Source of the DNA: Bacteroidetes bacterium UBA6183 | GTDB taxonomy: Bacteria; Bacteroidota; Bacteroidia; UKL13-3 | Assembly (NCBI GenBank): GCA_002422865.1 | Contig: DITN01000087.1 | Location: 25,084-89,083, forward strand | Direction: 5' to 3' | DNA length: 64,000 bases | Part shown: piece after piece, positions 29,713 through 57,402 of the stretch | How positions within the stretch are numbered: position 1 is the first letter of the stretch | Layout: each line of letters begins with the position of its first letter | Position numbers and translations under genes: made by a program | The notes under the pieces: generated by a model | Seen by the model: the letters and a program-made list of their open reading frames with translations, nothing else | Databases searched by the model: none | Told to the model about the DNA's origin: nothing

Positions 29713-30354
29713 TTAACTTTTCTTTTTCATTTTTTCAAGCGCCTCTTGCAGCTGCACCCTAGCCCTGCTTAACTGCGATTTTGAAGTTCCCTCGCTTATG
29801 CCCAACATTTCACCAATTTCAGCATGACCATAACCTTCTACAATAAAAAGGTTTAACACAGCACGATAGCCAGGTGGTAAGTTGTTCATGGCCAATAATA
29901 TTTCTTTTTGGCTCATGCGCTCCACCGTAAAATCGTTGTGCGCTTGGTTATAAGCAGCATCCACATCGCTATGGTACATGTGCATTTTGTTAACTCTGTA
30001 AAACTCTAATGCTGTGTTTACAAAAATGCGTTTCATCCAACCTTCAAAAGAACCTGCGAAGCTAAATTGCTCCATTTTGGTAAAAACTTTAACAAACCCG
30101 TCTTGCAAAATATCTTTCGCTTCATCAGCATTGCTGCTATAACGCAAGCACACTCCATACATGGTTTTCGAATAGGTTTCGTAAAGCGTTTTTTGCGCTA
30201 ACCTATTGCCTTTCAAACATTCCTGTATAAGTTCATGCTCGTTTTGTTTGTTCACGTTTCTACCGGTTACTTTTTCAGATGAATAATAGCTGCCCGAGGT
30301 TGCAAGGGCATGATTAAAAGTTAAAAAATTCTTTATGCAACGCAAATAATGCAT
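29713..30354 (-). CDS. RNA polymerase ECF-type sigma-70 factor. The start is uncertain; a GTG at 30255 would give about 180 aa.
   Basis: Region 2 'ELIQECLKGNRLAQKTLYETYSKTMYGVCLRYSSNADEAKDILQDGFVKVF'. Region 4 'EGYGHAEIGEMLGISEGTSKSQLSRAR'. Confidence 0.9.
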   Translation of the reverse strand: MHYLRCIKNFLTFNHALATSGSYYSSEKVTGRNVNKQNEHELIQECLKGNRLAQKTLYETYSKTMYGVCLRYSSNADEAKDILQDGFVKVFTKMEQFSFAGSFEGWMKRIFVNTALEFYRVNKMHMYHSDVDAAYNQAHNDFTVERMSQKEILLAMNNLPPGYRAVLNLFIVEGYGHAEIGEMLGISEGTSKSQLSRARVQLQEALEKMKKKS

Positions 30355-44000: not shown

Positions 44001-44981
44001 GTGTTAAACCTCTTTAGACAAAACTCTTTATTAGCCGGTATAATGCTGTTTGTATTAACAGTATTGCTGCGGTTGCCTGCATTTACTACAATGCCTAAAT
44101 ACGAGTTTATTCAAAATGCCCCATTTGCACGTTTAACTTTTGGTTTTATTGCAGCCCTACCTAATGCTTATTTGTGGAGTTTTATAATAGCAACAGCTTT
44201 GGTGTTTTTGCAAGCCATGTTTATTAACTACATCGTTTATTCGCAAAGTATATTGTACAAAAATACTTTCATGCCAGGTTTGTTTTATATTTTACTTAAC
44301 AGCTTTTTTATACAACAAACCGAACTAACACCACAACTTATTTCAAACACCTTTGTTCTTTTATTATTACAACGTTTGTGTTACCTATACGAATCAAAGA
44401 ACCCGCTTTTAGTTGTGCTAGATACCGGTTTATACCTTGGTGTTGGCATTCTATTTAATTACGATTTATTATTGTTTTTGCCTTTTATTTTAATCAGCGT
44501 AATTATTTTCACTTCATTTAACTTGCGTTATTTAATTGTATCTGTTCTAGGAATTTGTATACCGCTGTATTTTACAGGAATATACTTTTATGTAACCAAT
44601 AGGTATGACGAACTCCTTTTATACATTGTACAAAGTTTTGAGTATAAACAACTAAAACCGATAGAAACAAACTGGGTGAGGTTGTTGCCTTGGGTTATTA
44701 TCTTACCTGTTACGGTGGTATCTGTTTTTAACTTACAGCAAAACTTTTTTCGTAACAAAGTAAAAACCCGCAGGATTATTCAAAGTATTTATTTGATGTT
44801 GTTCTTTGGCATAGCAGGATTGTTTTTTGAAAATGTAAATTACCTGTATGCATTGGTTTATTTGAGCGTTCCAACCAGCATTGTAGTGGCTTATTATTTT
44901 ATAAGCGACAAACGATTTTTACTTAAGGAAGTGCTTTTTTTTACTTTACTTGGGCTAGCGATATATTATCAGTTGGGCTAG
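44001..44981 (+). CDS. hypothetical polytopic membrane protein (GTG start)
   Basis: About 8 predicted transmembrane segments. 326 aa. Confidence 0.6.
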   Translation: MLNLFRQNSLLAGIMLFVLTVLLRLPAFTTMPKYEFIQNAPFARLTFGFIAALPNAYLWSFIIATALVFLQAMFINYIVYSQSILYKNTFMPGLFYILLNSFFIQQTELTPQLISNTFVLLLLQRLCYLYESKNPLLVVLDTGLYLGVGILFNYDLLLFLPFILISVIIFTSFNLRYLIVSVLGICIPLYFTGIYFYVTNRYDELLLYIVQSFEYKQLKPIETNWVRLLPWVIILPVTVVSVFNLQQNFFRNKVKTRRIIQSIYLMLFFGIAGLFFENVNYLYALVYLSVPTSIVVAYYFISDKRFLLKEVLFFTLLGLAIYYQLG

Positions 44982-45670
44982 CGGTTAATTAGAGCTATTA
45001 GCTGCTTTTTATAGCTTGCTCCCATCGTTATGTCGGTTCCGTTTGTTAACAATATTGAGTTACCATCAATCGATTTAATAAACTTTGTATTAACCACAAC
45101 ACTTCTGTGCACTTGCATAAAAATAGATTGTGGTAAGTCAGGAATAATGTGCTTTAAACGCTGATAAACCATTACGGACCTATCTCCTATCAAGTTAAAT
45201 CTTATATACTCACCTTCTGCGTTTACATGTGTAATTTCATTAAAAAACAATTGCTGGTATTTGTTTCTACCCGTTTGTAAAAAGAAAGAGTCCGGTAGGG
45301 GTTTATAATCATTTAGGCTGATTCTTTTGTAAGCCCTTTCTAGTGCAGTTAAGGCGTGCTCTGGCTTAATGGGTTTTTGTATAAAATGTAACACATCGTA
45401 CTCAAAAGCCTGCATGGCATATTTAGGATAATTAGAAATTACTACTATGGCTGGCTTAATGGCCAAGGGTTTTATTAAGTCGAAGGCATTACTGCCATTT
45501 AGTTCCACATCAAGAAATAAAAGGTCAAACTTATTATTGGTTATGGTTTCTATCCATAAATCAGGAGTAATAACTTTTGGAAACAACAAAAACCGACTAT
45601 CTGTTTGAATAATGTTTTTCAACAATCGAACATCTTTTTCCTCGTCTTCAACAATAGCGCATTTAATCAT
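44978..45670 (-). CDS. LytTR-family two-component response regulator
   Basis: Receiver domain 'MIKCAIVEDEE...LLFLDVELNGSNAFDLI'. The C-terminal LytTR domain is 'ITHVNAEGEYIRFNL...'. Confidence 0.88.
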   Translation of the reverse strand: MIKCAIVEDEEKDVRLLKNIIQTDSRFLLFPKVITPDLWIETITNNKFDLLFLDVELNGSNAFDLIKPLAIKPAIVVISNYPKYAMQAFEYDVLHFIQKPIKPEHALTALERAYKRISLNDYKPLPDSFFLQTGRNKYQQLFFNEITHVNAEGEYIRFNLIGDRSVMVYQRLKHIIPDLPQSIFMQVHRSVVVNTKFIKSIDGNSILLTNGTDITMGASYKKQLIALINR

Positions 45671-45844
45671 TTTACAGGGGTTTGTTGCGAATATGCAATA
45701 TTATTAAAACAACAACATTAACTTAACTCGAGTTTAGTTATTTGTATTTAATACTTCATTGAACGTTTTAAACATTTGATTGTGCTTAATGGCTGTTTTA
45801 TTGAAAATGTTTTTTTACAACTAAATATTTCAGAAATTGAAAAA

Positions 45845-47512
45845 ATGAAACCCAAAGTTATATCCTTTCTTATACTAATTATCGCTCTGCACACCAAAGC
45901 AATTGGCCAATATGTTTGGTTTAGCGGATATAGCTACAATGCACCATTTTTATTGAATCAAAAAAAAGAAGTATTGTTTAATCGTGCTGAAAACAAAAAC
46001 ACATGGAGTGCATTATACAATAAAATATCCTTGGCCAATTTATATTGGTTAAATAGAGATTATGCCGGCTGTAAACAACATTTATTGGGCGCTTTATCGT
46101 TTGCAGAACAACGTTTAACTAAAGAGGATTTATTAATTTTTAGCATTAAAATTAATCACCTGATTTGGGAAAGGGCTCTTTTTGAGGGCCGATGGGAAGA
46201 AGCGCTTGATCGAACCAACTCCAATAAAAAATTTATTCATCATCCATTGGGCGATGCACTTTATCAGTATCAAACTTATATCATGATGGCCAAGGGTGAT
46301 GTAGCATTTATTGAATCCGATAAAAAGATAATGAGTAAATTAAAGCAAAGTTTAGTTGAACTCAACTTACCCAAAATGGCACTCTCTATGGCTATGCAGG
46401 AGTATCACCATCAATTTATTAGTAAAGTAGCGTTATCCGAATTCATAAATAAACTACCCGAACCTATTAAACATGTTGGAGCGCTGGAAATGTATTACCA
46501 AACCAAATCAAAGTCGAAAATAGAATTGGTAGAAATATTCAATAAACTACCACATTACGACTATATATCAACTTTTAGGGCTAGTGTTGAGCTGATGAAG
46601 TTTTATGCTTCAGAGCAAAATATTGATTCGTTTTATTACTTTCAACAAAAGGCCCAAACCTTAACTAAGTATTTGGCCGATGCAGATGCAGATAATCACT
46701 ACAACACAACCATCTCAAACCTTTTTGAGCAACGCCTAATAACAACCGACAGCAGTTTATTGGTAGATGCAAAACCATGGAGAACCGAGACACGAGTTGG
46801 TATTTACAACCATTACAATAACCTAAGAATTGAAGAAGTAAACCAACGCTATTTAAAACAACTAAATACCACCAAATGGTTATTAATAGCGCTTTTCATA
46901 GCTACAATAGCATTGGTAGTGGTACTTTTTAAAATTGTAAAAAGCCAACAACAACTCAAGCGTTTAAACCAATTTAGAAATCAGTTTGTATTTGCCTTGT
47001 CGCATGATTTAAACGCCACACTCGCAGCCATAGAAGAACAATCAGATAAAAATACCGAAGCGTTATTATTTGAACACCGCATGATGTTAGATGATACGTT
47101 GCTGTGGGCAAAAAGTGCAAACCAACATAACAGCATAACAACAGATACCTGTAGCTTATCTGATTTGGTTCACGAAACGTTGGAGCAATTAGGCAGTTTA
47201 CTTTTACAAAAAAAAATTAAGGTTAATTGGGTTAGCGATGATGACCAAGCCATAACCATAAACAAAAATGCCATGCTGGTGGTGGTAAGAAACATTTTAT
47301 TAAACGCTATAAAACACAACACCCGAAATGGTTTTGTTACCATTGATGTAGAGGCACGAAAAATTAAACTTACTAACAGCACCACACACACCATACAAAC
47401 ACAAAGCAAAACAGGCAGTTTTTTAATAAACTACTTTACTGCCATTAACAACGCTACTTATACTTTATACATCAATAAACAAGTAGCCTATACCGAAATA
47501 ATAATAAACTAA
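45845..47512 (+). CDS. sensor histidine kinase with signal peptide, large extracytoplasmic TPR-like sensor domain, one TM, HisKA and degenerate HATPase
   Basis: 'MKPKVISFLILIIALHTKAIGQ'. TM 'WLLIALFIATIALVVVLF'. H-box 'ALSHDLNATLAAIEE'. N-box 'NILLNAIKHNTRNG'. No clear G1/G2 motifs. Confidence 0.8.
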   Translation: MKPKVISFLILIIALHTKAIGQYVWFSGYSYNAPFLLNQKKEVLFNRAENKNTWSALYNKISLANLYWLNRDYAGCKQHLLGALSFAEQRLTKEDLLIFSIKINHLIWERALFEGRWEEALDRTNSNKKFIHHPLGDALYQYQTYIMMAKGDVAFIESDKKIMSKLKQSLVELNLPKMALSMAMQEYHHQFISKVALSEFINKLPEPIKHVGALEMYYQTKSKSKIELVEIFNKLPHYDYISTFRASVELMKFYASEQNIDSFYYFQQKAQTLTKYLADADADNHYNTTISNLFEQRLITTDSSLLVDAKPWRTETRVGIYNHYNNLRIEEVNQRYLKQLNTTKWLLIALFIATIALVVVLFKIVKSQQQLKRLNQFRNQFVFALSHDLNATLAAIEEQSDKNTEALLFEHRMMLDDTLLWAKSANQHNSITTDTCSLSDLVHETLEQLGSLLLQKKIKVNWVSDDDQAITINKNAMLVVVRNILLNAIKHNTRNGFVTIDVEARKIKLTNSTTHTIQTQSKTGSFLINYFTAINNATYTLYINKQVAYTEIIIN

Positions 47513-47628: not shown

Positions 47629-48066
47629 ATGGAAAAAATTCAGATTAAATCTATTCAACTAAGTAAAATTTCTCACATATCGGAAACAATTACCATCAGG
47701 TATGACAACTCTGTGAATATAATCGATGAGATGGGTGGAGAAGACTTTTTCTACATAGAATTAAACACAAAAGAAAACTGCGCAATAAAAATAAAATCCG
47801 ACCCAGAATTATCATTATCAATGCAGTTTTTATTGGCAGATTACGCTGGAATATATAGTACATATGTTGAATTAAAAAGCTTTGAAGGGATTTTTGGGAT
47901 ATCTGGAACGAGTGCTAATGGAGATTGGAGTATGGAGTTCCACGGTCAATATCTTGAAGAATCTGAAAATATTGGAGATGAAGATGCCAGTCTTATTGAA
48001 GAAGTATTAAATCCTATGGCAGTATTTGAAATCGCCAATGAAGTTTTAAATGCAGTAAGGAAGTAA
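47629..48066 (+). CDS. hypothetical acidic cytoplasmic protein (low-GC island)
   Basis: 145 aa with no signal peptide and an acidic C-terminal half. The local GC content is markedly below the rest of the window. Confidence 0.55.
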   Translation: MEKIQIKSIQLSKISHISETITIRYDNSVNIIDEMGGEDFFYIELNTKENCAIKIKSDPELSLSMQFLLADYAGIYSTYVELKSFEGIFGISGTSANGDWSMEFHGQYLEESENIGDEDASLIEEVLNPMAVFEIANEVLNAVRK

Positions 48067-48081
48067 TATTTTAATTAAAAT

Positions 48082-48875
48082 ATGAAGGCGGAATTTAGTG
48101 TATTAAACCATATATCCAAAGACAACATTGTCTTGAAAGTAAATGAAATGGTCAAACACAATCTAACAGATACTAGTCATGGATATCAAACATACAAAGA
48201 CTCTTTGATTTCATTAGCTGCACATTCTTCAGCTAAAAACTACACAAAGAAAGCCAAGAAAAGTCCTGCCATTGCCTTAATAGAAGTTGTTTTATCAGCA
48301 AACAGGAATTACAACAAAGTAGTAGAACCCAATATCAATTGTATTAGAAAAAACTATCCTGAACTTGTAACATTTAATAATCTTCAGAAGTTTATAAAAG
48401 AAACTAGTCAGGCGTCTTTTTATAAATTTTGGGGTCATGAAGACGAAAAAAATACAATACGCTAAAGGATCTATTGAAAGCAATCACTAAATTACGTTTG
48501 CAATACCCACAGCATAATTCAAACGACTTTAAACTAATGCAAGCATGGGCAAAAGATGCTTGTGTAGATAAACTAAAAGATGACACAATTGGTTCAATAC
48601 GAAATATTGGCATTGCCACATTTCAGCATTTACGGATGACATTTGGAGCCAATACTGTTAAGCCTGATTTGAGGGTGAAACAGGTATTGGAAAAGGAATT
48701 TAAATTAAAATTATTATCGGACTTAAATTCTATAAAAGCGGTTGAACAAATTGCGTTAATTATGAAACTGAGTGTTATGGAGTGTGATCAGATTTTTGTT
48801 ATGTATGGATCAAGTTATTATAACACCACTAAAAGTAAAAATAAATCATCCAAATCTAAATACAAGTGCATTTAG
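48082..48875 (+). pseudogene. HhH-GPD superfamily (endonuclease III-like DNA glycosylase) gene split into two ORFs by a frameshift in an A7 run (48446-48452)
   Basis: ORF1 'PAIALIEVVLSANRNYNKVVEPNINCIRKNYP' matches the EndoIII N-terminal helix. ORF2 'IRNIGIATFQHLRMTFGANTVKPDLRVKQVL' matches the HhH-GPD 'LPGVGxKTAxxVLxxAFG...VDTHVxRV' region. The +1 frame is open from 48441, so the two ORFs overlap across the A7 run. Confidence 0.6.
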
Positions 48876-48926
48876 TTCTTTTAGGTTAGCACAGGTATAA
48901 ATTTTAAAAATTACGATATTATAAAA

Positions 48927-51437
48927 ATGAGCAATATTAGAGTCACAACTCCTTCATTTGTTTTCGGATATTGGAGGCCGTGGAACGAAAATTCTAATTT
49001 AACCGAAAGCTATCTTAATTATGTTAAGGATGTTTCTTTGGTTAAATACGGTGCTGATGTTGTTGGAAAATATGTTAAAGAGGCCTCCCAAGAACAGGTA
49101 AATGCCATATCGAAGCTTGGTAATAAAATTGGAAGCGGTTTTGATTTGCTATCCAATAAATTGGATACTGTGAATGAGGAGTTGCGTTTTTTAAATGCTA
49201 ACACAGAGATTCTTGTTGAACAACAAAGGCTTAGTAATATTTTGCTCGAAGATATTATTGAGCTTCTCCGAGTACCTGATAGTGAAAAAGAACGCCAACA
49301 TGCCATAGAACTTGGTATAAAGTTCTTTGTTAATGCCCAAAAAGACCACACACTATTTGATGATGCTTTAGAGCAACTTCAAAAGGCAGAAGCCTTAATG
49401 AAACAAGATTATTTTGTGCTTCACAGAATTGGGTGTATACATCTGTATGTAGAGAACCATTTAGACATTAAAAAAGCAAGGGATTATTTCATTAAATCAG
49501 CCAAATACTCAAGTGTAGAAAGTGGCCCCGATGCAGTTAGATTGGCAAATGCTTTAACAGAAAACACCCTAAACAAGCAAAAGCGACATGATGAAATAAA
49601 CTCCTTTATAGAAAATTTAAATTGGGAAACATACCCTGAGCTTCAAAAAATTAATGTCTTTGATTTAAGCTATGACGAAGATACAATATTTTTTAAAATT
49701 GCTACAGAAGGTGTGTTTGACTCCCTATTTGAAGAAGCAGCACAAATTATTGTTCAGCATCAACAGGGTTCAACGTCATTGCTGCAACGCAAACTTAATT
49801 TGGGTTATAACCGTGCTGGGTTATTGATAGACCAATTAGAGAAAGCTGAAATTGTTGGTCCATTTCACGGAAGCAAAGCTCGTGAAGTATTGGTTAATAA
49901 TGTTGATTTGCTTGAGATTAAACTTAGAAAAATTAAACGAGATTCAAAAATATTAAAGACTATTGGTCAATACAATCCTATAACTTTATCAGCTGAAGAG
50001 TTAATTGATGAACAGGAGGATGTTAAAAAACAAGGGTTAATTAGGTCAGAAGTAATGGAAATATCCTCCATTATTGAAAATATCAACCTTAAACATCAAT
50101 ATTATGGAACAAACTCTCTGAAAGCCCTTGCCTCAGATTCGTACCAAAAGGCTGCGTTTTGTTCATATATTTTGGGTGAGTTTGAGAAAGCAGTTACCTA
50201 TCAACAAGAGGCAACAGATCTAGTAAATAGCCCTGAAAACCTTTACCTACTGGCCAAGTATCTGACAAGAAATAGTCAACAGAGTGAAGCTGTTGAGAAC
50301 CTTAGTGCTGCAATTGATTTAATGCCAGCTATGGCTTTAGCCGTTTTTAAAGAAATTGATTTATTGAATACTCCAGAGATTCTTAAATTAATTGAAAAGA
50401 AGAACGAAGAAATTAACGACAAAGTCAATGAATTAATTGAAGAATGGAAAGATATAAAATCTAAAATATCATTAGATGAAATCAACCATTTGAATTTAGC
50501 ATTGAATAGCTCCTATGATATAAAAGTTGCTTCACACAACAAATCAAAAGAAATATTAAAAGATACTGTTAAAAAGATTGATATTCAAAAACAAGAAATA
50601 GATGAGACCATATCAGAGTTTAATAGTAAGACAGTAATCAAACCAACCGATGATTTAATTGATAATCTAAACAAGTCAAAAGATTTAACACTTGAGGAAA
50701 TGGAGCAGATCCACATTGAGTTAGAAGAGAAGCTCAATAATACTGTTGTGAAAATTGGCTCAAACTACCAAGGAGGTTTAGTTTTTCACCTTGATGAGAG
50801 TGGTAAGCATGGTTTAATATGTGCAGAAAATATATTCGAATCAGCTGTTTGGGGGGGAGATGGTATGAAATGTAGAACTACTCAAAAATTAGGATCTGGT
50901 AAAAACAATACAACTAATATCAATAAAAATGCCGGAACGAAGACTAAAGATTCTGTACTATTCTTGGCGACCGGCTTAACGGTCCTCTGGTTTTTTTGGG
51001 GAGGTATTAAACAAATATTATTAAAAGGCGATGTTTCAATACCCTTGTTAACTCAAGATGGAATTTACTGGGGGTTTAGATTAGGCATCTTTGCATTCAT
51101 AATATTTTCGGTACTTTTCATTGGCTCAAAAAATAAAACTAAACTAACAACAGCCGCAGAATTGTGCTTAAAATCAACCCTCAACGGTTTTAATGATTGG
51201 TTTTTACCATCTATTGAAGAACTTGAGTTAATTCATAAAAATCTTTATTCTCAGGGAAAACTTGAAAACCTTACAGAGCAAACATGCTGGAGTAGCAGCG
51301 AATACATTCATGACTCACTATCCATCGCTGAAAAATATGCAAATGCTTATTGTTTGAACTTTAACAAAACAAGCACAGACCAAATGTTCGATAAGCGATT
51401 AAACAAAAACGGTGTATTAATGGTCAGGTCGTTTTAA
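48927..51437 (+). CDS. 836-aa multidomain protein: N-terminal helical domain, FtsK-gamma-like winged helix, coiled-coil/TPR-like region, and a DUF1566 (Lcl C-terminal-like) domain interrupted by two TM helices
   Basis: 'FEEAAQIIVQHQQGSTSLLQRKLNLGYNRAGLLIDQLEKAEIVGPFHGSKAREVLV' aligns with the FtsK gamma domain '[29 protein letters not shown]...REVL'. 'GGLVFHLDESGKHGLICA' and 'NDWFLPSIEELELI...WSSSEY...GVLMVRSF' are DUF1566-like. TM 'VLFLATGLTVLWFFWGG' and 'WGFRLGIFAFIIFSVLFIG'. Confidence 0.75.
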   Translation: MSNIRVTTPSFVFGYWRPWNENSNLTESYLNYVKDVSLVKYGADVVGKYVKEASQEQVNAISKLGNKIGSGFDLLSNKLDTVNEELRFLNANTEILVEQQRLSNILLEDIIELLRVPDSEKERQHAIELGIKFFVNAQKDHTLFDDALEQLQKAEALMKQDYFVLHRIGCIHLYVENHLDIKKARDYFIKSAKYSSVESGPDAVRLANALTENTLNKQKRHDEINSFIENLNWETYPELQKINVFDLSYDEDTIFFKIATEGVFDSLFEEAAQIIVQHQQGSTSLLQRKLNLGYNRAGLLIDQLEKAEIVGPFHGSKAREVLVNNVDLLEIKLRKIKRDSKILKTIGQYNPITLSAEELIDEQEDVKKQGLIRSEVMEISSIIENINLKHQYYGTNSLKALASDSYQKAAFCSYILGEFEKAVTYQQEATDLVNSPENLYLLAKYLTRNSQQSEAVENLSAAIDLMPAMALAVFKEIDLLNTPEILKLIEKKNEEINDKVNELIEEWKDIKSKISLDEINHLNLALNSSYDIKVASHNKSKEILKDTVKKIDIQKQEIDETISEFNSKTVIKPTDDLIDNLNKSKDLTLEEMEQIHIELEEKLNNTVVKIGSNYQGGLVFHLDESGKHGLICAENIFESAVWGGDGMKCRTTQKLGSGKNNTTNINKNAGTKTKDSVLFLATGLTVLWFFWGGIKQILLKGDVSIPLLTQDGIYWGFRLGIFAFIIFSVLFIGSKNKTKLTTAAELCLKSTLNGFNDWFLPSIEELELIHKNLYSQGKLENLTEQTCWSSSEYIHDSLSIAEKYANAYCLNFNKTSTDQMFDKRLNKNGVLMVRSF

Positions 51438-51808: not shown

Positions 51809-52003
51809 TTTGGCATCTCTCCTATTTTATTATAATTGGCACTTACATTGTACCAATATAAACAACATTTTTAGTTCTTTACTTTGCTTAAATCTGCACA
51901 AGTAGTATTTAACAATAACTACGCTCAATAATTTATATAAAAACTTGTTTTATTTATCATTATATTTTATACCTTTGGGTATAATACCATATAGTATAAA
52001 AAC

Positions 52004-53164
52004 ATGAAAGATTCTCCATTTATATATGGCTCAACCGTTAGTGTCCATGCATTTACCAATAGAGAGGTTGAAACGAAAAAACTCAGCGGCAATTTACTTA
52101 ATGGAATAAATACAACCATTATATCTCCTCGCAGGTGGGGGAAATCATCTTTAGTGGAGAAGGTAACAACCGACATTGCCAAAAAACACAAAAATGTAAA
52201 GGTTGTGCTAATAGATCTATTTTCGGTAAGCAGTGAGGAGGAGTTTTTGGAAGCTTTTGCACGTGAAGTTATTAAATCTTCATCGTCAAAATGGCAAGAA
52301 TGGCTGGCAAGTGGTAAGGATTTTTTTAAGCAACTAACGCCCAAGCTTAGTGTAGGTGTAGATCCCCAATCTGATTTTAGCCTAGGGTTTGATTGGAAAG
52401 AATTAAGCAAAAACAGTGATGAGGTATTGAATCTGCCAGAAAATATTGCCAACAAAAAGAATATTAAATTTATTATTTGTCTAGATGAGTTTCAAAACCT
52501 AAGCACATTTAACCATGCTGCAAATTTTGAGAAAAAGCTCAGGGCTAACTGGCAGCGACATAAGCTGGTTACTTACTGCCTATACGGTAGCAAACGTCAC
52601 ATGATGACGGAAATATTCAACAATGCCTCCAAACCTTTTTACCGATTTGGGGATATAATGCTGCTGCCCAAAATAGAAACAGCTAAATGGCAGCAATTTA
52701 TTACTGAGGGTTTTGAGAAAACCAGTAAAAGGATTGACGCATCAACCGCTGCATGTATTCCACAAGTGATGAAAAACCACTCATGGTACGTGCAACAATT
52801 GGCGCATTACACCTGGAATGTTACAGCTAAAAAAGCAGGCATCACAGAAGTTAATGCTGCATTAACTGAGTTGATTCAGGCAAATACACCCCTGTATCAA
52901 CGGGAAATTGAAATTATTAGCACTACCCAACTTAACCTGTTAAAAGCCATTTGCAAGGGAGAAACAAGGTTTACTAGTGCAGCCGTAATGAAGGAGTATG
53001 CTATTGGAACACCTCGAAACGTGAGCAAAAACAAAACTATACTCATCAATAACGATATTGTTCACGAGGTTGATGGTAGTTACGAATTTTTAGACCCCGC
53101 ATTTGAACTTTGGTTTAAAAAACAATATTTTAATCAATCTTATTTAATTAAACCCTTAATTTAG
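52004..53164 (+). CDS. AAA+ ATPase (archaeal-ATPase / PF01637-like)
   Basis: Walker A 'ISPRRWGKSSLVEK'. Walker B 'FIICLDEFQNL'. C-terminal winged-helix-like region. Confidence 0.8.
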   Translation: MKDSPFIYGSTVSVHAFTNREVETKKLSGNLLNGINTTIISPRRWGKSSLVEKVTTDIAKKHKNVKVVLIDLFSVSSEEEFLEAFAREVIKSSSSKWQEWLASGKDFFKQLTPKLSVGVDPQSDFSLGFDWKELSKNSDEVLNLPENIANKKNIKFIICLDEFQNLSTFNHAANFEKKLRANWQRHKLVTYCLYGSKRHMMTEIFNNASKPFYRFGDIMLLPKIETAKWQQFITEGFEKTSKRIDASTAACIPQVMKNHSWYVQQLAHYTWNVTAKKAGITEVNAALTELIQANTPLYQREIEIISTTQLNLLKAICKGETRFTSAAVMKEYAIGTPRNVSKNKTILINNDIVHEVDGSYEFLDPAFELWFKKQYFNQSYLIKPLI

Positions 53165-53180
53165 TTAACGCAGCATGGTA

Positions 53181-53200
53181 AAACAACAGCTGATGTTTTA
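53181..53200 (+). repeat. repeat copy R2 (core AAACAACAGCTGATGTTTTA) between the two ATPase cassettes
   Basis: Exact 20-bp match to the ends of R1 and R3. Shares the TTTTAGG ending with R3. Confidence 0.75.
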
Positions 53201-53235
53201 GGGAAAAATAGATACTGTTTTACGTCAAATCAACT

Positions 53236-54378
53236 TTACTTCATAATTTCTCCTGCCCAAAGCTTTTGTAAAAAAACGTTCCAGGGTAAAACCAAAATAT
53301 TATCAATAAGCCTTGGCATAGGTTCGTTACAAACTAAAATAAGTTGTTTGGTTTTGTATTCTTCGGCAAAACTTTTTAACCCCGATAAGTGGCGCGAAGA
53401 AACCTTAGAAGTAGATTTTACTTCTACAGCAATTTCATTATCGCCCAAAATAAAATCAACTTCAATTTGTGATGCCGTGCGCCAATAAGAAATTGGATAC
53501 GATAATCCGGAGTATTGACTGTGTGCGTATATTTCGTGGTAAACAAAGTGCTCAAAAGCATTACCAAAAACTTCACTTCCGAATTCAATTTTACCTCGCT
53601 TAAGCAAGTAGTTTACGATACCAACATCAAAAAAATAAAACTTAGGTGCGGTTATCACCCTTCTTTTCGGTTTCTTTTGGTATGATGGCACAAACCTACC
53701 TACCAACGTATCTTCCAGTATTTGAAAATACTCTTTTACTGTAGGTGCTGAAACACCGCAATCAGAGGCAATGTTAGCGTAATTTACCATCTCACCATTA
53801 CTAAATGCGGCAGCTTCTAAAAACTTAGCAAACGATTGTATGTTCCTGATTTTTGCCTCGGCAGCTATCTCGTCTTTAAGGTAATTACCAATATAGGCCG
53901 ATTGTAATTTTTTGACGTTGGCAGCTAAATAGTGGCGAGGCAACAAACCATTATTTAACGCTCTTAATAAATCAAAATTGGGAATCTCGCTACTTACCAA
54001 TGGGTATAACTCGTATCTATGCGCCCTGCCACCCAAAAGATTGTAGCCACCGCGTATTATTTTTCTAGAGCTTGATCCACTAAGTATAAATTGTATGCTC
54101 TTGTTTGTAATGAGCCAATGCACTTCATTTAATAAATCGGGTATGCGTTGTATTTCATCAATAATCACCAAATTGGCTTCGGGTTGTGCCAAAATAGTTT
54201 CCCTGAGTATTGAAGGATTGTTAGAGAGTCGTTCGTAAACATCAGAAAGCAACAAATCAAACCAAATTGCATGAGGAAACATCTCTTTTAAAAGCGTGCT
54301 TTTTCCGGTTTGGCGTGCGCCCCACAAAAATAAACTGTGGTTTTCTGCATCAATTAATATTTGTTTTCTAGTAAACAT
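53236..54378 (-). CDS. AAA+ ATPase with C-terminal DUF4143 (AAA_14 family)
   Basis: Walker A 'LWGARQTGKSTLLKE'. Walker B 'LVIIDEIQRIPD'. C-terminal 'VITAPKFYFFDVGIVNYLLKRG...' is DUF4143-like. Confidence 0.85.
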   Translation of the reverse strand: MFTRKQILIDAENHSLFLWGARQTGKSTLLKEMFPHAIWFDLLLSDVYERLSNNPSILRETILAQPEANLVIIDEIQRIPDLLNEVHWLITNKSIQFILSGSSSRKIIRGGYNLLGGRAHRYELYPLVSSEIPNFDLLRALNNGLLPRHYLAANVKKLQSAYIGNYLKDEIAAEAKIRNIQSFAKFLEAAAFSNGEMVNYANIASDCGVSAPTVKEYFQILEDTLVGRFVPSYQKKPKRRVITAPKFYFFDVGIVNYLLKRGKIEFGSEVFGNAFEHFVYHEIYAHSQYSGLSYPISYWRTASQIEVDFILGDNEIAVEVKSTSKVSSRHLSGLKSFAEEYKTKQLILVCNEPMPRLIDNILVLPWNVFLQKLWAGEIMK

Positions 54379-54562
54379 TTAACAAATGTACTTTACTTTA
54401 TCATGATAAACAAAAGTGTTACTTTGTTTTATCTTGTAATTTAGCTGGTAGTATATTTACATTTTACTACGCTTTGGCGTTCTGCATTATCTTGCTCATC
54501 AAACCACTATATACCTAAAAAACCTAACCTTACTTACCACATTTTTATTGATTGCAGTAATT

Positions 54563-54822: not shown

Positions 54823-55542
54823 ATGATTAAATATGCAGTTTTAGATGATGACGCCCTGATAATTGAAGAACTTGACAACTTGATGCTTAATGATAACCGA
54901 TTTAAAAACATTGGAAATGCTTGTAATATCAGACAACTGCAGGATATTTTATTAAAGAATAAACCTCAATTGGTTTTTGCAGATATTAAAATTGGTAACG
55001 ATAATTTTTTAGATTTTTGGAATAAACTCGACCAAAGGCCCGAACTTATTATCATTACTTCGTACCCGGAATACGCATTAAGTGCTTTTGAGCACGAAGC
55101 ATTACACTTTATAACCAAACCCATCAAACCCGAAAAATTATTTACTGCAGTTGAAAGGGCCTACCGAAAAATAACGCTTCATATTGCTTCAAAAGAGCTC
55201 ACTTTTTTCTTTTTACAAACCGGGAAAAATAAATACACTCGCGTGGCTTTTGATGAAATTTTATTTATTGAGGCCGATGGTGAATACCTTAAATTACATT
55301 TGGTTGATGATAGGGAACTGTTGGTTTTTAAACGACTTAAAGCCCTATTACAAGAGCTGCCCGCAAATCGATTTAAACAAATTCATAGGTCTTACATTAT
55401 TAATGTTTCACAAATTGATAGTATAGACTACCACGAGGTAGCTTTTAAAGGCAACAAAACCGTGCCTGTTGGTAAAACTTATAAGAGTGCAATAGAAGAA
55501 ATATTGCTCGGAAACTCAACTTCCATCCCAAATAAAAATTAA
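54823..55542 (+). CDS. LytTR-family response regulator (paralog of 44978-45670)
   Basis: Receiver domain plus LytTR domain, 'ILFIEADGEYLKLHL'. About 40% identity by eye to the first response regulator. Confidence 0.88.
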   Translation: MIKYAVLDDDALIIEELDNLMLNDNRFKNIGNACNIRQLQDILLKNKPQLVFADIKIGNDNFLDFWNKLDQRPELIIITSYPEYALSAFEHEALHFITKPIKPEKLFTAVERAYRKITLHIASKELTFFFLQTGKNKYTRVAFDEILFIEADGEYLKLHLVDDRELLVFKRLKALLQELPANRFKQIHRSYIINVSQIDSIDYHEVAFKGNKTVPVGKTYKSAIEEILLGNSTSIPNKN

Positions 55543-57242
55543 TTAAAAAACACCTCCGCTATTGCGCGGTTGTTTAGTTTTTTAAAGCTGTATTTTGCTT
55601 TATTTTGTTTTGAAAAAAACTGAATAATTTCACTGCCGGCTGTTGGCTTGTTGCTAATATCAAGATCTGCAATACTATTTTCTATCCTAATTTTAATGCC
55701 ATTAGATGTCAACTCTTTAATGGTAATGTAACCTTGCTCCTTGTTGTGTTTTATTGCGTTTAATAATATGTTTCTAAACAATACTTTAAGGCTTGGGTAA
55801 TCACCTCGTACAATAAGCTCTTCAGGTAAATGATTTGATATGCCAATTCTTTTATCTGTGGCCACAAACCTCAGGTCTTCAAGTAACTCATGTATCAACT
55901 CAAACAAATCAACTTCCTTAAACTCCACTTTTTTATTTCCATGAACCTTTAATGCCATGTTTAGCGTATCATCCAATAAATACTCATAACTAATAAGGTT
56001 ACTTTTAGCTGTATTTGTACCATTTGGCTTATTTAATGCATTGGCAATTTGTGCAACAGGGCTGCGTAAATCGTGTGATAAAGCAGTAGTTATCCAGTTG
56101 TTGTATAATGTTGATTTTTTAAGTCGTTTAAATCCGTAAAACACAAAACCCAATAACACAAACACAATTAATAAAAGTGCAGTAAGCCAACTTATAAAAA
56201 GTCGGTTGCGATTTCTTTCTTTTTCAATTTCACTGTTCGCCTCCTTAAGCAAATCTGCAGCTACACTTCTTGAGGCTAAAAACTGCTCCTTGTAGTCATA
56301 CTCAACCACATTAACAGGTATTTCGGGTGACAGCATCTCTTGAGGTATTTTACTTTTTAGTTCCTCGTAATACTGCGCATAATGGCGGTTTACTTCATAA
56401 TCAGCTAGAAAATAAACAACATCGTGAGCTCTTTTTAAATAGTTATTTGCTTTGTAAAAAGAATCCTGATTGATGTAGTGTGCCACAAGGCCCATATTAA
56501 GCCTAAAATAAGCCAAGTAATTATTTAAGGAAATGGCTGTAGAAGCAAATAAATATTCAGGATGTTGCATTCCTGTGTAATAATACAAATTCATCATGCC
56601 TTCGGCCTTGTATGCTTCGCTCAATTCTTCAAGCTTTTTCTCTAAATCCTTAAGCGGGTATCGTTCCAGAAAATTTTGCTGCTGCATCAATAACGTTTCT
56701 ATGTATGGCGTGTAAGCTTGAACGAATAAAAAAGTTCCGGTTAACTTGGTAAGCTCATCGTCAATATCTAAAATATGTTCTGGAGGGATTGATTTAGCCA
56801 ATAACTTAATGCGGTTATACTTTAAAAATGCATACGCTATATGTTCCTTAGGAATGATAACCATAGCCTCTTTAATAGCCTTGTATGCATTTACGTATTG
56901 ACCTATGTATATTAATCGTTCAACTTTTAAGTTATGCAAGTAGTACCTTACTGAATCGTTAACTCCACTCCTAACCCAATTACTGTATGCCAATGCATAA
57001 TTAAGGGTATTAAACAACAAGGGTTTGTTATTGGTTAAAAAGGCCTTGTTTGCTAAATCAACACATGCAAAAATCCTTTCGTTTCCTGTTGATTGTAAAA
57101 CGCGTTGATTAAGCGCATAAACAGAATTGTTTTTAAGCCAATTACCATCGTAGTTGTAACCGGTAAACCACAGCTTATTACTTTGGGCGAAAACACCCCA
57201 AGCACAACAAACAGCCAATACAAACAATACTTTTTTAAGCAT
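55539..57242 (-). CDS. sensor histidine kinase, paralog of 45845-47512 (signal peptide, TPR-like sensor, one TM, HisKA, degenerate HATPase). The ORF extends to 57284.
   Basis: 'MLKKVLFVLAVCCAWGVFAQSNKLWFTGYNYDGNW' parallels 'QYVWFSGYSYNAPF' in the first kinase. TM 'LFISWLTALLLIVFVLLGFVFYGF'. H-box 'ALSHDLRSPVAQIAN'. N-box 'NILLNAIKHNKEQG'. Confidence 0.8.
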   Translation of the reverse strand: MLKKVLFVLAVCCAWGVFAQSNKLWFTGYNYDGNWLKNNSVYALNQRVLQSTGNERIFACVDLANKAFLTNNKPLLFNTLNYALAYSNWVRSGVNDSVRYYLHNLKVERLIYIGQYVNAYKAIKEAMVIIPKEHIAYAFLKYNRIKLLAKSIPPEHILDIDDELTKLTGTFLFVQAYTPYIETLLMQQQNFLERYPLKDLEKKLEELSEAYKAEGMMNLYYYTGMQHPEYLFASTAISLNNYLAYFRLNMGLVAHYINQDSFYKANNYLKRAHDVVYFLADYEVNRHYAQYYEELKSKIPQEMLSPEIPVNVVEYDYKEQFLASRSVAADLLKEANSEIEKERNRNRLFISWLTALLLIVFVLLGFVFYGFKRLKKSTLYNNWITTALSHDLRSPVAQIANALNKPNGTNTAKSNLISYEYLLDDTLNMALKVHGNKKVEFKEVDLFELIHELLEDLRFVATDKRIGISNHLPEELIVRGDYPSLKVLFRNILLNAIKHNKEQGYITIKELTSNGIKIRIENSIADLDISNKPTAGSEIIQFFSKQNKAKYSFKKLNNRAIAEVFFN

Positions 57243-57402
57243 ATACTTTACAAAGTAAACAAAACAACTTTTTAATACTTGCATTTATGCGTTGGTGCTA
57301 TTTAAATAAACGTTGGTGCGAGTAAGTTGGATGTTGGATGAATAGTTGAGTTTGGGTGCAGGCTGAGTTTTAATTTGCCATTCGTTACAATCATTAAACC
57401 CC

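Follow-up and report, generated by a model that had tools for sequence, protein, structure and literature searches.

The defence-associated glycosylases Dag1 to Dag17 belong to the helix-hairpin-helix (HhH) superfamily and are not connected with any known glycosylase by sequence searches (Getz et al., bioRxiv 10.1101/2025.10.29.685425). They are described there as compact single-gene units of AT-rich or mobile regions, often near defence or mobile-element genes, which occur sporadically across phyla including Bacteroidota, are found in Vibrio integron cassettes and act against phages with 7-deazaguanine DNA; Dag1 is reported to be bifunctional with an essential lysine, K118. In the END nucleases an inactivated EndoIII/Ogg-like sensor domain is combined with a PLD nuclease (bioRxiv 10.1101/2025.03.31.646159, PMC12191111). 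Here we describe a gene at positions 48082 to 48875 (forward strand) of a stretch of 64,000 nucleotides from contig DITN01000087.1 of Bacteroidetes bacterium UBA6183, the whole of which is called the window in the following. Its reading frame is broken in a run of seven adenines (A7), and its intact relatives form an unannotated protein family with a predicted HhH fold. We consider it probable that the break is a real, recent and probably inactivating deletion of one nucleotide in a lineage-specific run of eight adenines (A8).

If compared by published description only, the Dags are the closest conceptual relatives of the window family, which is likewise a sequence-invisible, sporadically occurring single gene of predicted HhH fold. 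The window gene is AT-rich, and some members of the family are located near restriction-modification (R-M) or mobile genes. It differs from Dag1, with its essential K118 and bifunctional activity, by an alanine at the canonical lysine position, and the setting of the window gene is another one than the Vibrio integron. We found no accession or organism shared between the family and the Dag locus tags listed in the portion of the supplement available to us; a profile search aimed at named relatives in Vibrio brought up 11 proteins, all of them unnamed. The END nucleases resemble the window family in their HhH/EndoIII-like fold, which was recruited there, in defence islands, for the recognition of hypermodified phage DNA. 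However, the catalytic residues are lost from the END domain, which is joined to PLD, whereas the putative catalytic aspartate of the window family is invariant and the members of the window clade stand alone. Brig3 and Brig1 were also considered as analogues and were set aside, as their fold differs (UDG/AAG-like).

The break can be read directly from the frames. The first open reading frame (ORF1) extends from 48082 to 48465 on the forward strand (127 amino acids, TAA stop at 48463-48465), and a second frame is open from 48441, right after a TGA at 48438-48440, to the stop at 48873-48875. Both frames can be joined solely within their overlap of 25 nucleotides, in which the A7 run sits. The gene is composed of the following parts:

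48082 to 48465, forward strand: ORF1, of which codons 1-123 are the true N-terminal half according to the alignment with the intact homologues P0001-P0005; it contains an N-terminal extension (residues 1-60) and the first HhH-GPD core helices.
End of ORF1, past the break: four out-of-frame codons N-T-I-R, followed by TAA.
48446 to 48452, forward strand: A7 homopolymer, site of the apparent one-nucleotide deletion; when intact, the run is A8 and encodes E-K-K-Y.
48441 to 48875, forward strand: −1 frame, which encodes residues 124-264 (C-terminal half) of the repaired protein and contains the stop.

Codons of ORF1 start at positions ≡ 1 modulo 3 and codons of the second frame at positions ≡ 0 modulo 3, which makes the downstream frame −1. 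Insertion of a single A (A7 to A8) restores an ORF of 264 codons, and together with the −1 register this indicates a one-nucleotide deletion, which would be called a −1 shift in ribosomal terms. The A8 repair also rebuilds the family motif D-E-K-K-Y, the second lysine of which (K124) is invariant in 121 aligned sequences; “WGHKDEKKY” is the commonest form of this region across these 121 members. Gene callers give the second fragment (ORF2) as an ORF of 133 amino acids at 48474-48875 with a TTG start at 48474. An earlier note, made from the letters of this DNA without database searches, had given the limits of ORF1, the opening at 48441, the closing at 48465 and the A7 run in the overlap, all of which we re-read from the sequence, and the peptides it quoted, ALIEVVLSANRNYNKVV and NIGIATFQHLRMTFG...VKPDLRVKQVL, are present in the translations. 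Its label of a +1 frameshift does not agree with the frame arithmetic given above. The joined product of about 265 amino acids that it proposed is indeed one protein, with an exact length of 264 amino acids after the A8 repair.

Intact homologues are the rule. In a protein database search the repaired protein matched single-ORF proteins over 100% of its length (195 matches); the closest, of 264 amino acids, are 89% (E value 1.7e-149) and 86% identical (E value 2.5e-145), and the 120 database homologues listed are single ORFs. An agreement of this extent is far more than chance would give. A genome scan yielded 33 loci of scattered taxonomy among 185,579 species genomes, a number that undercounts the family since the scan used patterns specific to the window clade. 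All 33 of the 33 other complete genomic copies consist of one uninterrupted ORF, as the earlier note had envisaged for homologues, and no homologue begins at the start position of ORF2. Two short ORFs of the family that start at Met153 (L044 and L045) are fragments at contig edges and uninformative on disruption.

The origin of the run becomes visible in comparison to the closest relatives, L001 and L002, whose DNA is approximately 92% identical. Here the codons GAA AAG AAG TAC stand in place of GAAAAAAATAC in the window; the run site reads GAAAAGAAGTAC in these relatives, and the DNA alignment contains exactly one gap column, which lies within the run. This is an argument that, through two synonymous AAG-to-AAA changes (G to A), the conserved codons for E-K-K became a continuous A8 tract, from which one A was subsequently lost, presumably by replication slippage. 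Against an intact relative, the ratio of non-synonymous to synonymous substitution rates (dN/dS) amounts to 0.18 for the part upstream of the break and to 0.135 for the part downstream, in which further lesions or extra stops are absent. Low values in both halves and the lack of additional lesions indicate a break that is recent in comparison to the dS of about 0.3. In the 264-codon accessory gene the split would thereby fall mid-fold, where a predicted helix (residues 122-141) begins; neither fragment should be able to form the two-lobed structure, and function would probably be lost in this strain. A second copy of the family (L042, also L043) is broken independently and at another position, inside a (CA)5 repeat, GACACACACACAATGAC. 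In L042 the split lies around nucleotides 470-490, with the N-terminal part in frame 1 (nucleotides 58-483) and the C-terminal part in frame 3 (nucleotides 486-797); this change of frame was seen in two Logan runs. Disruption at a simple repeat has thus happened at least twice in the family.

If the true genome carried A8, the gene would be intact and the break an artefact of sequencing or assembly. Homopolymer indels are a classic sequencing error, the presumed intact state is only one base away, and the gene is without other signs of decay. Against this, the split allele (127 + 133 amino acids) is recorded in four contigs of differing pipelines (NCBI, JGI, Logan and ENA), while one must keep in mind that these may not be independent samples. 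The two contigs read, a 161.5-kb MEGAHIT k141 contig in ENA and the JGI draft, are 100% identical to the window over 6.4 kb and 2.5 kb, respectively, and both have A7. For each of the 172 homopolymer runs of the window we also simulated the gain and the loss of one nucleotide (+1 and −1), and a gene was rejoined at the A7 site only. No gene is broken by any of the other 171 runs, which include nine 8-mers and two 9-mers of A/T, and 35 of the 44 A/T runs of at least seven nucleotides fall within open frames of at least 200 amino acids. The recurrence of A7 across contigs and the lack of any other gene-breaking run exclude a generally error-prone assembly and make a one-off assembly error unlikely; an intact A8 genome behind the record is in our view improbable. 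The homopolymers at 30323 and 40264 were examined as candidate breaks and rejected, because they mark plain gene boundaries between genes that are likewise separate in the syntenic locus L003.

A different explanation accepts A7 as real but not the gene as dead: it could be phase-variable, with A7 and A8 as reversible OFF and ON states, or leaky, with slipping transcripts or ribosomes giving some full-length protein, so that a glycosylase that is costly or toxic to its own cell stays OFF most of the time. Such an arrangement would fit the position of the break exactly in a coding mononucleotide tract, the undecayed downstream half, the zero-frame A AAA AAT, which formally agrees with the slippery pattern X XXY YYZ, and the second family member with its break in a different simple repeat; genes for defence often carry a cost, and runs of eight A can yield some rescue (PMC1088944). 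However, a low dN/dS is equally expected after any recent break, and slippage-prone behaviour becomes evident from about nine nucleotides in most bacterial genomes (PMC1088944), a length that A7 does not reach. No intact (A8, ON) protein of this strain is present in a database of 5.8 billion proteins, where the best match is 89% identical, and every contig found carries A7, with the reservation that consensus assemblies hide minority alleles. Scans of metagenome contigs did not retrieve the A8 allele but missed the known A7 copy too and are uninformative. The tract is lineage-specific, close relatives having AAGAAG, and is followed by no RNA structure (the 88 nucleotides downstream fold with −6.8 kcal/mol, z = −0.05 compared to shuffled sequences). 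As in homopolymer frameshift pseudogenes and contingency loci, the ORF is split because a coding mononucleotide run has changed its length by one nucleotide, and the tract goes back to synonymous changes in a genome rich in AT. In contrast to contingency loci, it comprises only seven to eight nucleotides, shows no observed length polymorphism and is not conserved in relatives, and it is consequently without the hallmarks of an evolved contingency locus. We regard a phase-variable or leaky gene as rather unlikely. A programmed −1 ribosomal frameshift in the style of dnaX or the IS3 transposases, or a functional split gene with reassembling polypeptides, could be suspected from the frame overlap around a formally slippery heptamer and from its reproducibility across assemblies. 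Yet programmed sites are conserved, and here the 33 other complete genomic copies and the 120 database homologues listed are single ORFs, no homologue starts where ORF2 does, the run is absent in the nearest relatives, and the split lies where a core helix of a single compact fold begins. The non-conserved run, the lack of a stimulatory structure downstream and the shortness of A7 make a programmed event very unlikely, and a recent inactivating deletion in A8 is the explanation that we prefer.

What was lost can be estimated from the intact protein, which is basic (isoelectric point 9.6). The joined protein has no significant match in Pfam, NCBIfam, PADLOC, PHROGs or the PDB sequences, so that a match of the joined translation to HhH-GPD profiles, as expected by the earlier note, did not appear. 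Neither hidden Markov model profiles of 121 close and 53 distant members, run on the PDB sequences, nor an hhalign comparison to E. coli Nth produced a significant match; the Pfam HhH-GPD model PF00730 matches none of the 121 close members at E ≤ 10 and none of the 53 distant members at E ≤ 1, and the Nth models of Pfam and NCBIfam do not match the window protein. The fold is a different matter. A confident structural model predicts a two-lobed, all-alpha protein with a helix-hairpin-helix element, which points to membership in the HhH-GPD DNA-glycosylase superfamily. The relevant segments are:

48265 to 48330, forward strand: conserved helix region P62-P83 (PAIALIEVVLSANRNYNKVVEP) with predicted helices 62-72 and 77-91.
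48603 to 48677, forward strand: HhH-GPD signature N175-V199, with a degenerate hairpin N-I-G, the second HhH helix (178-187), F188-G189 and the loop T192-x-K194-P195.
48666 to 48668, forward strand: putative catalytic residue D196, invariant, capping the predicted helix 197-207.

By eye, and with the verified sequence of Nth as reference, region P62-P83 resembles residues 29-49 of EndoIII (PFELLIAVLLSAQATDVSVNK). All 121 aligned sequences share L71 and R75, and at least 90% of them share A73, N74 and Y77. The signature region reads N175-I-G-I-A-T-F-Q-H-L-R-M-T-F-G-A-N-T-V-K-P-D196, in which A179, T180, Q182, H183, F188, G189, T192, K194, P195 and D196 are invariant in all 121. D196 aligns with D138 of EndoIII and with the catalytic aspartate of Ogg2 in two independent alignments, both of which are statistically non-significant. 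The position of the Schiff-base lysine (K120 in E. coli) corresponds to I178/A179 by motif register, and A179 is the invariant residue. Cysteines occur at 87, 161, 235 and 263 only, none of them conserved and their spacing unlike C-X6-C-X2-C-X5-C, which confirms the earlier impression that the iron-sulfur (Fe-S) cysteine cluster is absent.

The EndoIII-like HhH-GPD assignment proposed previously therefore holds for the superfamily, by predicted fold, but not for EndoIII itself (E. coli Nth, 2abk), from which the family is set apart by the invariant alanine at the equivalent of K120 and the missing Fe-S motif. Unlike canonical nth, a core gene, this family is accessory, with 33 loci in the undercounting genome scan. 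The closest structural relatives are the cluster-less monofunctional HhH-GPD proteins MagIII (H. pylori, 1pu6), Mag1 (S. pombe, 3s6i) and AlkA (A. fulgidus, 2jhj), together with Ogg2 (T. maritima Tm1821, 3n0u; M. jannaschii Ogg, 3knt). Their identity to the window protein is only 10-17%, and profile methods detect no relationship. The window protein further differs from them by an extra N-terminal extension of about 60 residues, a degenerate hairpin with N-I-G/A instead of G-h-G, and the family's own invariants R75, W117, K124, W156, Q182-H183 and K194-P195-D196, and its gene is accessory and patchy instead of serving housekeeping repair. The invariant D196 combined with an alanine at the Schiff-base position and the lack of an Fe-S motif suggests that the intact members are cluster-less monofunctional N-glycosylases. 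They might flip a non-canonical base out of the DNA, cleave the glycosidic bond and leave an abasic site.

An exhaustive profile search returned 451 representative clusters, so that the family comprises at least 451 sequence clusters. The family is distributed patchily over Bacteroidota, Burkholderia, Pseudoalteromonas, Undibacterium, Clostridia, Megasphaera and one metagenome-assembled genome of the archaeon Methanoperedens. The window clade has no Pfam, NCBIfam, PHROG or PADLOC assignment. A distant tier of about 210-250 amino acids matches the core only (profile positions of about 60-245) and has a consensus with the canonical G-x-G hairpin and K-P-D-x-H-I. Domain fusions were observed only in this distant tier (P0195, P0202, P0211, P0218 and P0223). 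The partners, located N-terminal to the glycosylase-like core, are a thymidylate/deoxynucleoside kinase (dNK), a nucleoside 2-deoxyribosyltransferase (NDT), Imm_superinfect with TPR, and DUF4268, combinations that point to functions in nucleotide or foreign-DNA conflict.

In the window the broken gene is part of an apparent operon with the order p145, glycosylase-like gene, p836 and DUF6150 protein, in which its direct neighbours are:

47629 to 48066, forward strand: p145, 15 nucleotides upstream of the broken gene.
48927 to 51437, forward strand: p836 (836 amino acids), with an FtsK-gamma winged-helix domain (E value 2.7e-25), TPR and a C-terminal Lcl_C/DUF1566-like domain.

The FtsK-gamma domain of p836 supports the earlier description of this neighbour as a DNA-binding multidomain protein. 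Its orthologue in the syntenic locus L003 has 737 amino acids and a weak Lcl_C match alone, and residues 286-371 (approximately) of p836 remain unaligned there. The product of p145 is acidic (isoelectric point 4.3, 26 Asp and Glu compared to 10 Lys and Arg) and matches no family of Pfam, PADLOC or PHROGs; its gene is tied to the glycosylase-like gene in the closest relatives only, and a role as DNA mimic or inhibitor partner would be pure speculation. If the window (47629-51437) is compared to L003 (9559-13060), the protein identity is 45% for p145, 65% for the glycosylase-like protein and 57-76% for p836, whereas the backbone genes (DUF6427, LytTR regulators, kinase-like, DUF6150) reach 89-99.6%. 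Three divergent genes amid a conserved backbone indicate a hypervariable, fast-diverging three-gene cassette that is conserved locally. The low-GC island in which the earlier note had placed the gene is real but modest: the GC content is 31.6% for the gene, 32.9% for the three-gene block and 33.9% for 44-57 kb, compared to 37.7% for 1-44 kb and 36.6% for the window.

Further genes accompany the cassette. At 51967-54562 two P-loop genes without counterpart in the otherwise syntenic L003 encode a 386-residue ATPase_2/AAA protein (weak match to PADLOC PDC-S01) and a 380-residue AAA_14+DUF4143 protein, which suggests an insertion or deletion of accessory genes beside the cassette. The variable region is flanked by paralogous pairs of a LytTR regulator and a kinase-like protein of about 580 amino acids (44978-47512 and 54823-57284), 37% and 24% identical between the pairs; in Pfam the kinase-like proteins give hardly any signal or none, with a weak HATPase_c match in one of them. 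One of them, an intact ORF of 578 amino acids (45776-47512), contains an A9 run at 47208-47216, so that longer coding A-tracts are tolerated here.

A hint towards the possible substrate arises from the surroundings of the family elsewhere. Among 107 flanking genes of 30 loci, counted without a control set, we found three HsdM/type I R-M methylases, two GmrSD, McrBC and other DNA methylases, as well as two MobA, two integrases and two VapE/primase-like genes. A multi-gene system common to the whole family was considered and rejected, as no neighbour is shared by more than three of 35 loci. One member, 45% identical, is located on a real phage contig (IMG/VR UViG_3300030520_000120, L040, 7950-8699), directly after the genes for head protease, major head protein, tail fibre and a virion protein, which is a typical position of phage accessory (“moron”) genes. 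The sporadic distribution, the lack of a conserved partner, the AT-rich hypervariable cassette and the R-M, GmrSD, McrBC, mobile and phage neighbours suggest, at lower confidence, that the substrate may be foreign DNA such as modified phage DNA and not endogenous damage. A tblastn search of 72,556 plasmid and 50,697 phage records with close and distant family members as queries gave no match, which weighs against this view. All parts could be combined into one picture, in which a new clade of defence-type HhH glycosylases excises modified bases from phage DNA as part of the three-gene cassette, where p145 might act as an inhibitor that mimics DNA or as a partner for immunity, with p836 as FtsK-gamma DNA-binding protein and a reversible A7/A8 OFF/ON switch that limits autoimmunity; taken as a whole, we give this picture little probability.

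The frameshift itself is ordinary, a young homopolymer-indel pseudogene in a metagenome-assembled genome, and its lesson concerns annotation, as public records call both fragments as separate hypothetical proteins. The more useful result is the gene family, which is unannotated and, by its structural model, a member of the HhH-GPD superfamily with an intact putative catalytic aspartate. The domain fusions with deoxynucleoside kinase, nucleoside deoxyribosyltransferase and superinfection immunity domains provide further functional leads. According to a preprint of 2025, HhH glycosylases of such a sequence-invisible kind can serve as effectors against phages by acting on modified DNA (bioRxiv 10.1101/2025.10.29.685425). 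By analogy this recent work makes a defence role of the window family plausible, and the family thereby represents a testable candidate for such an effector outside the Vibrio integrons.
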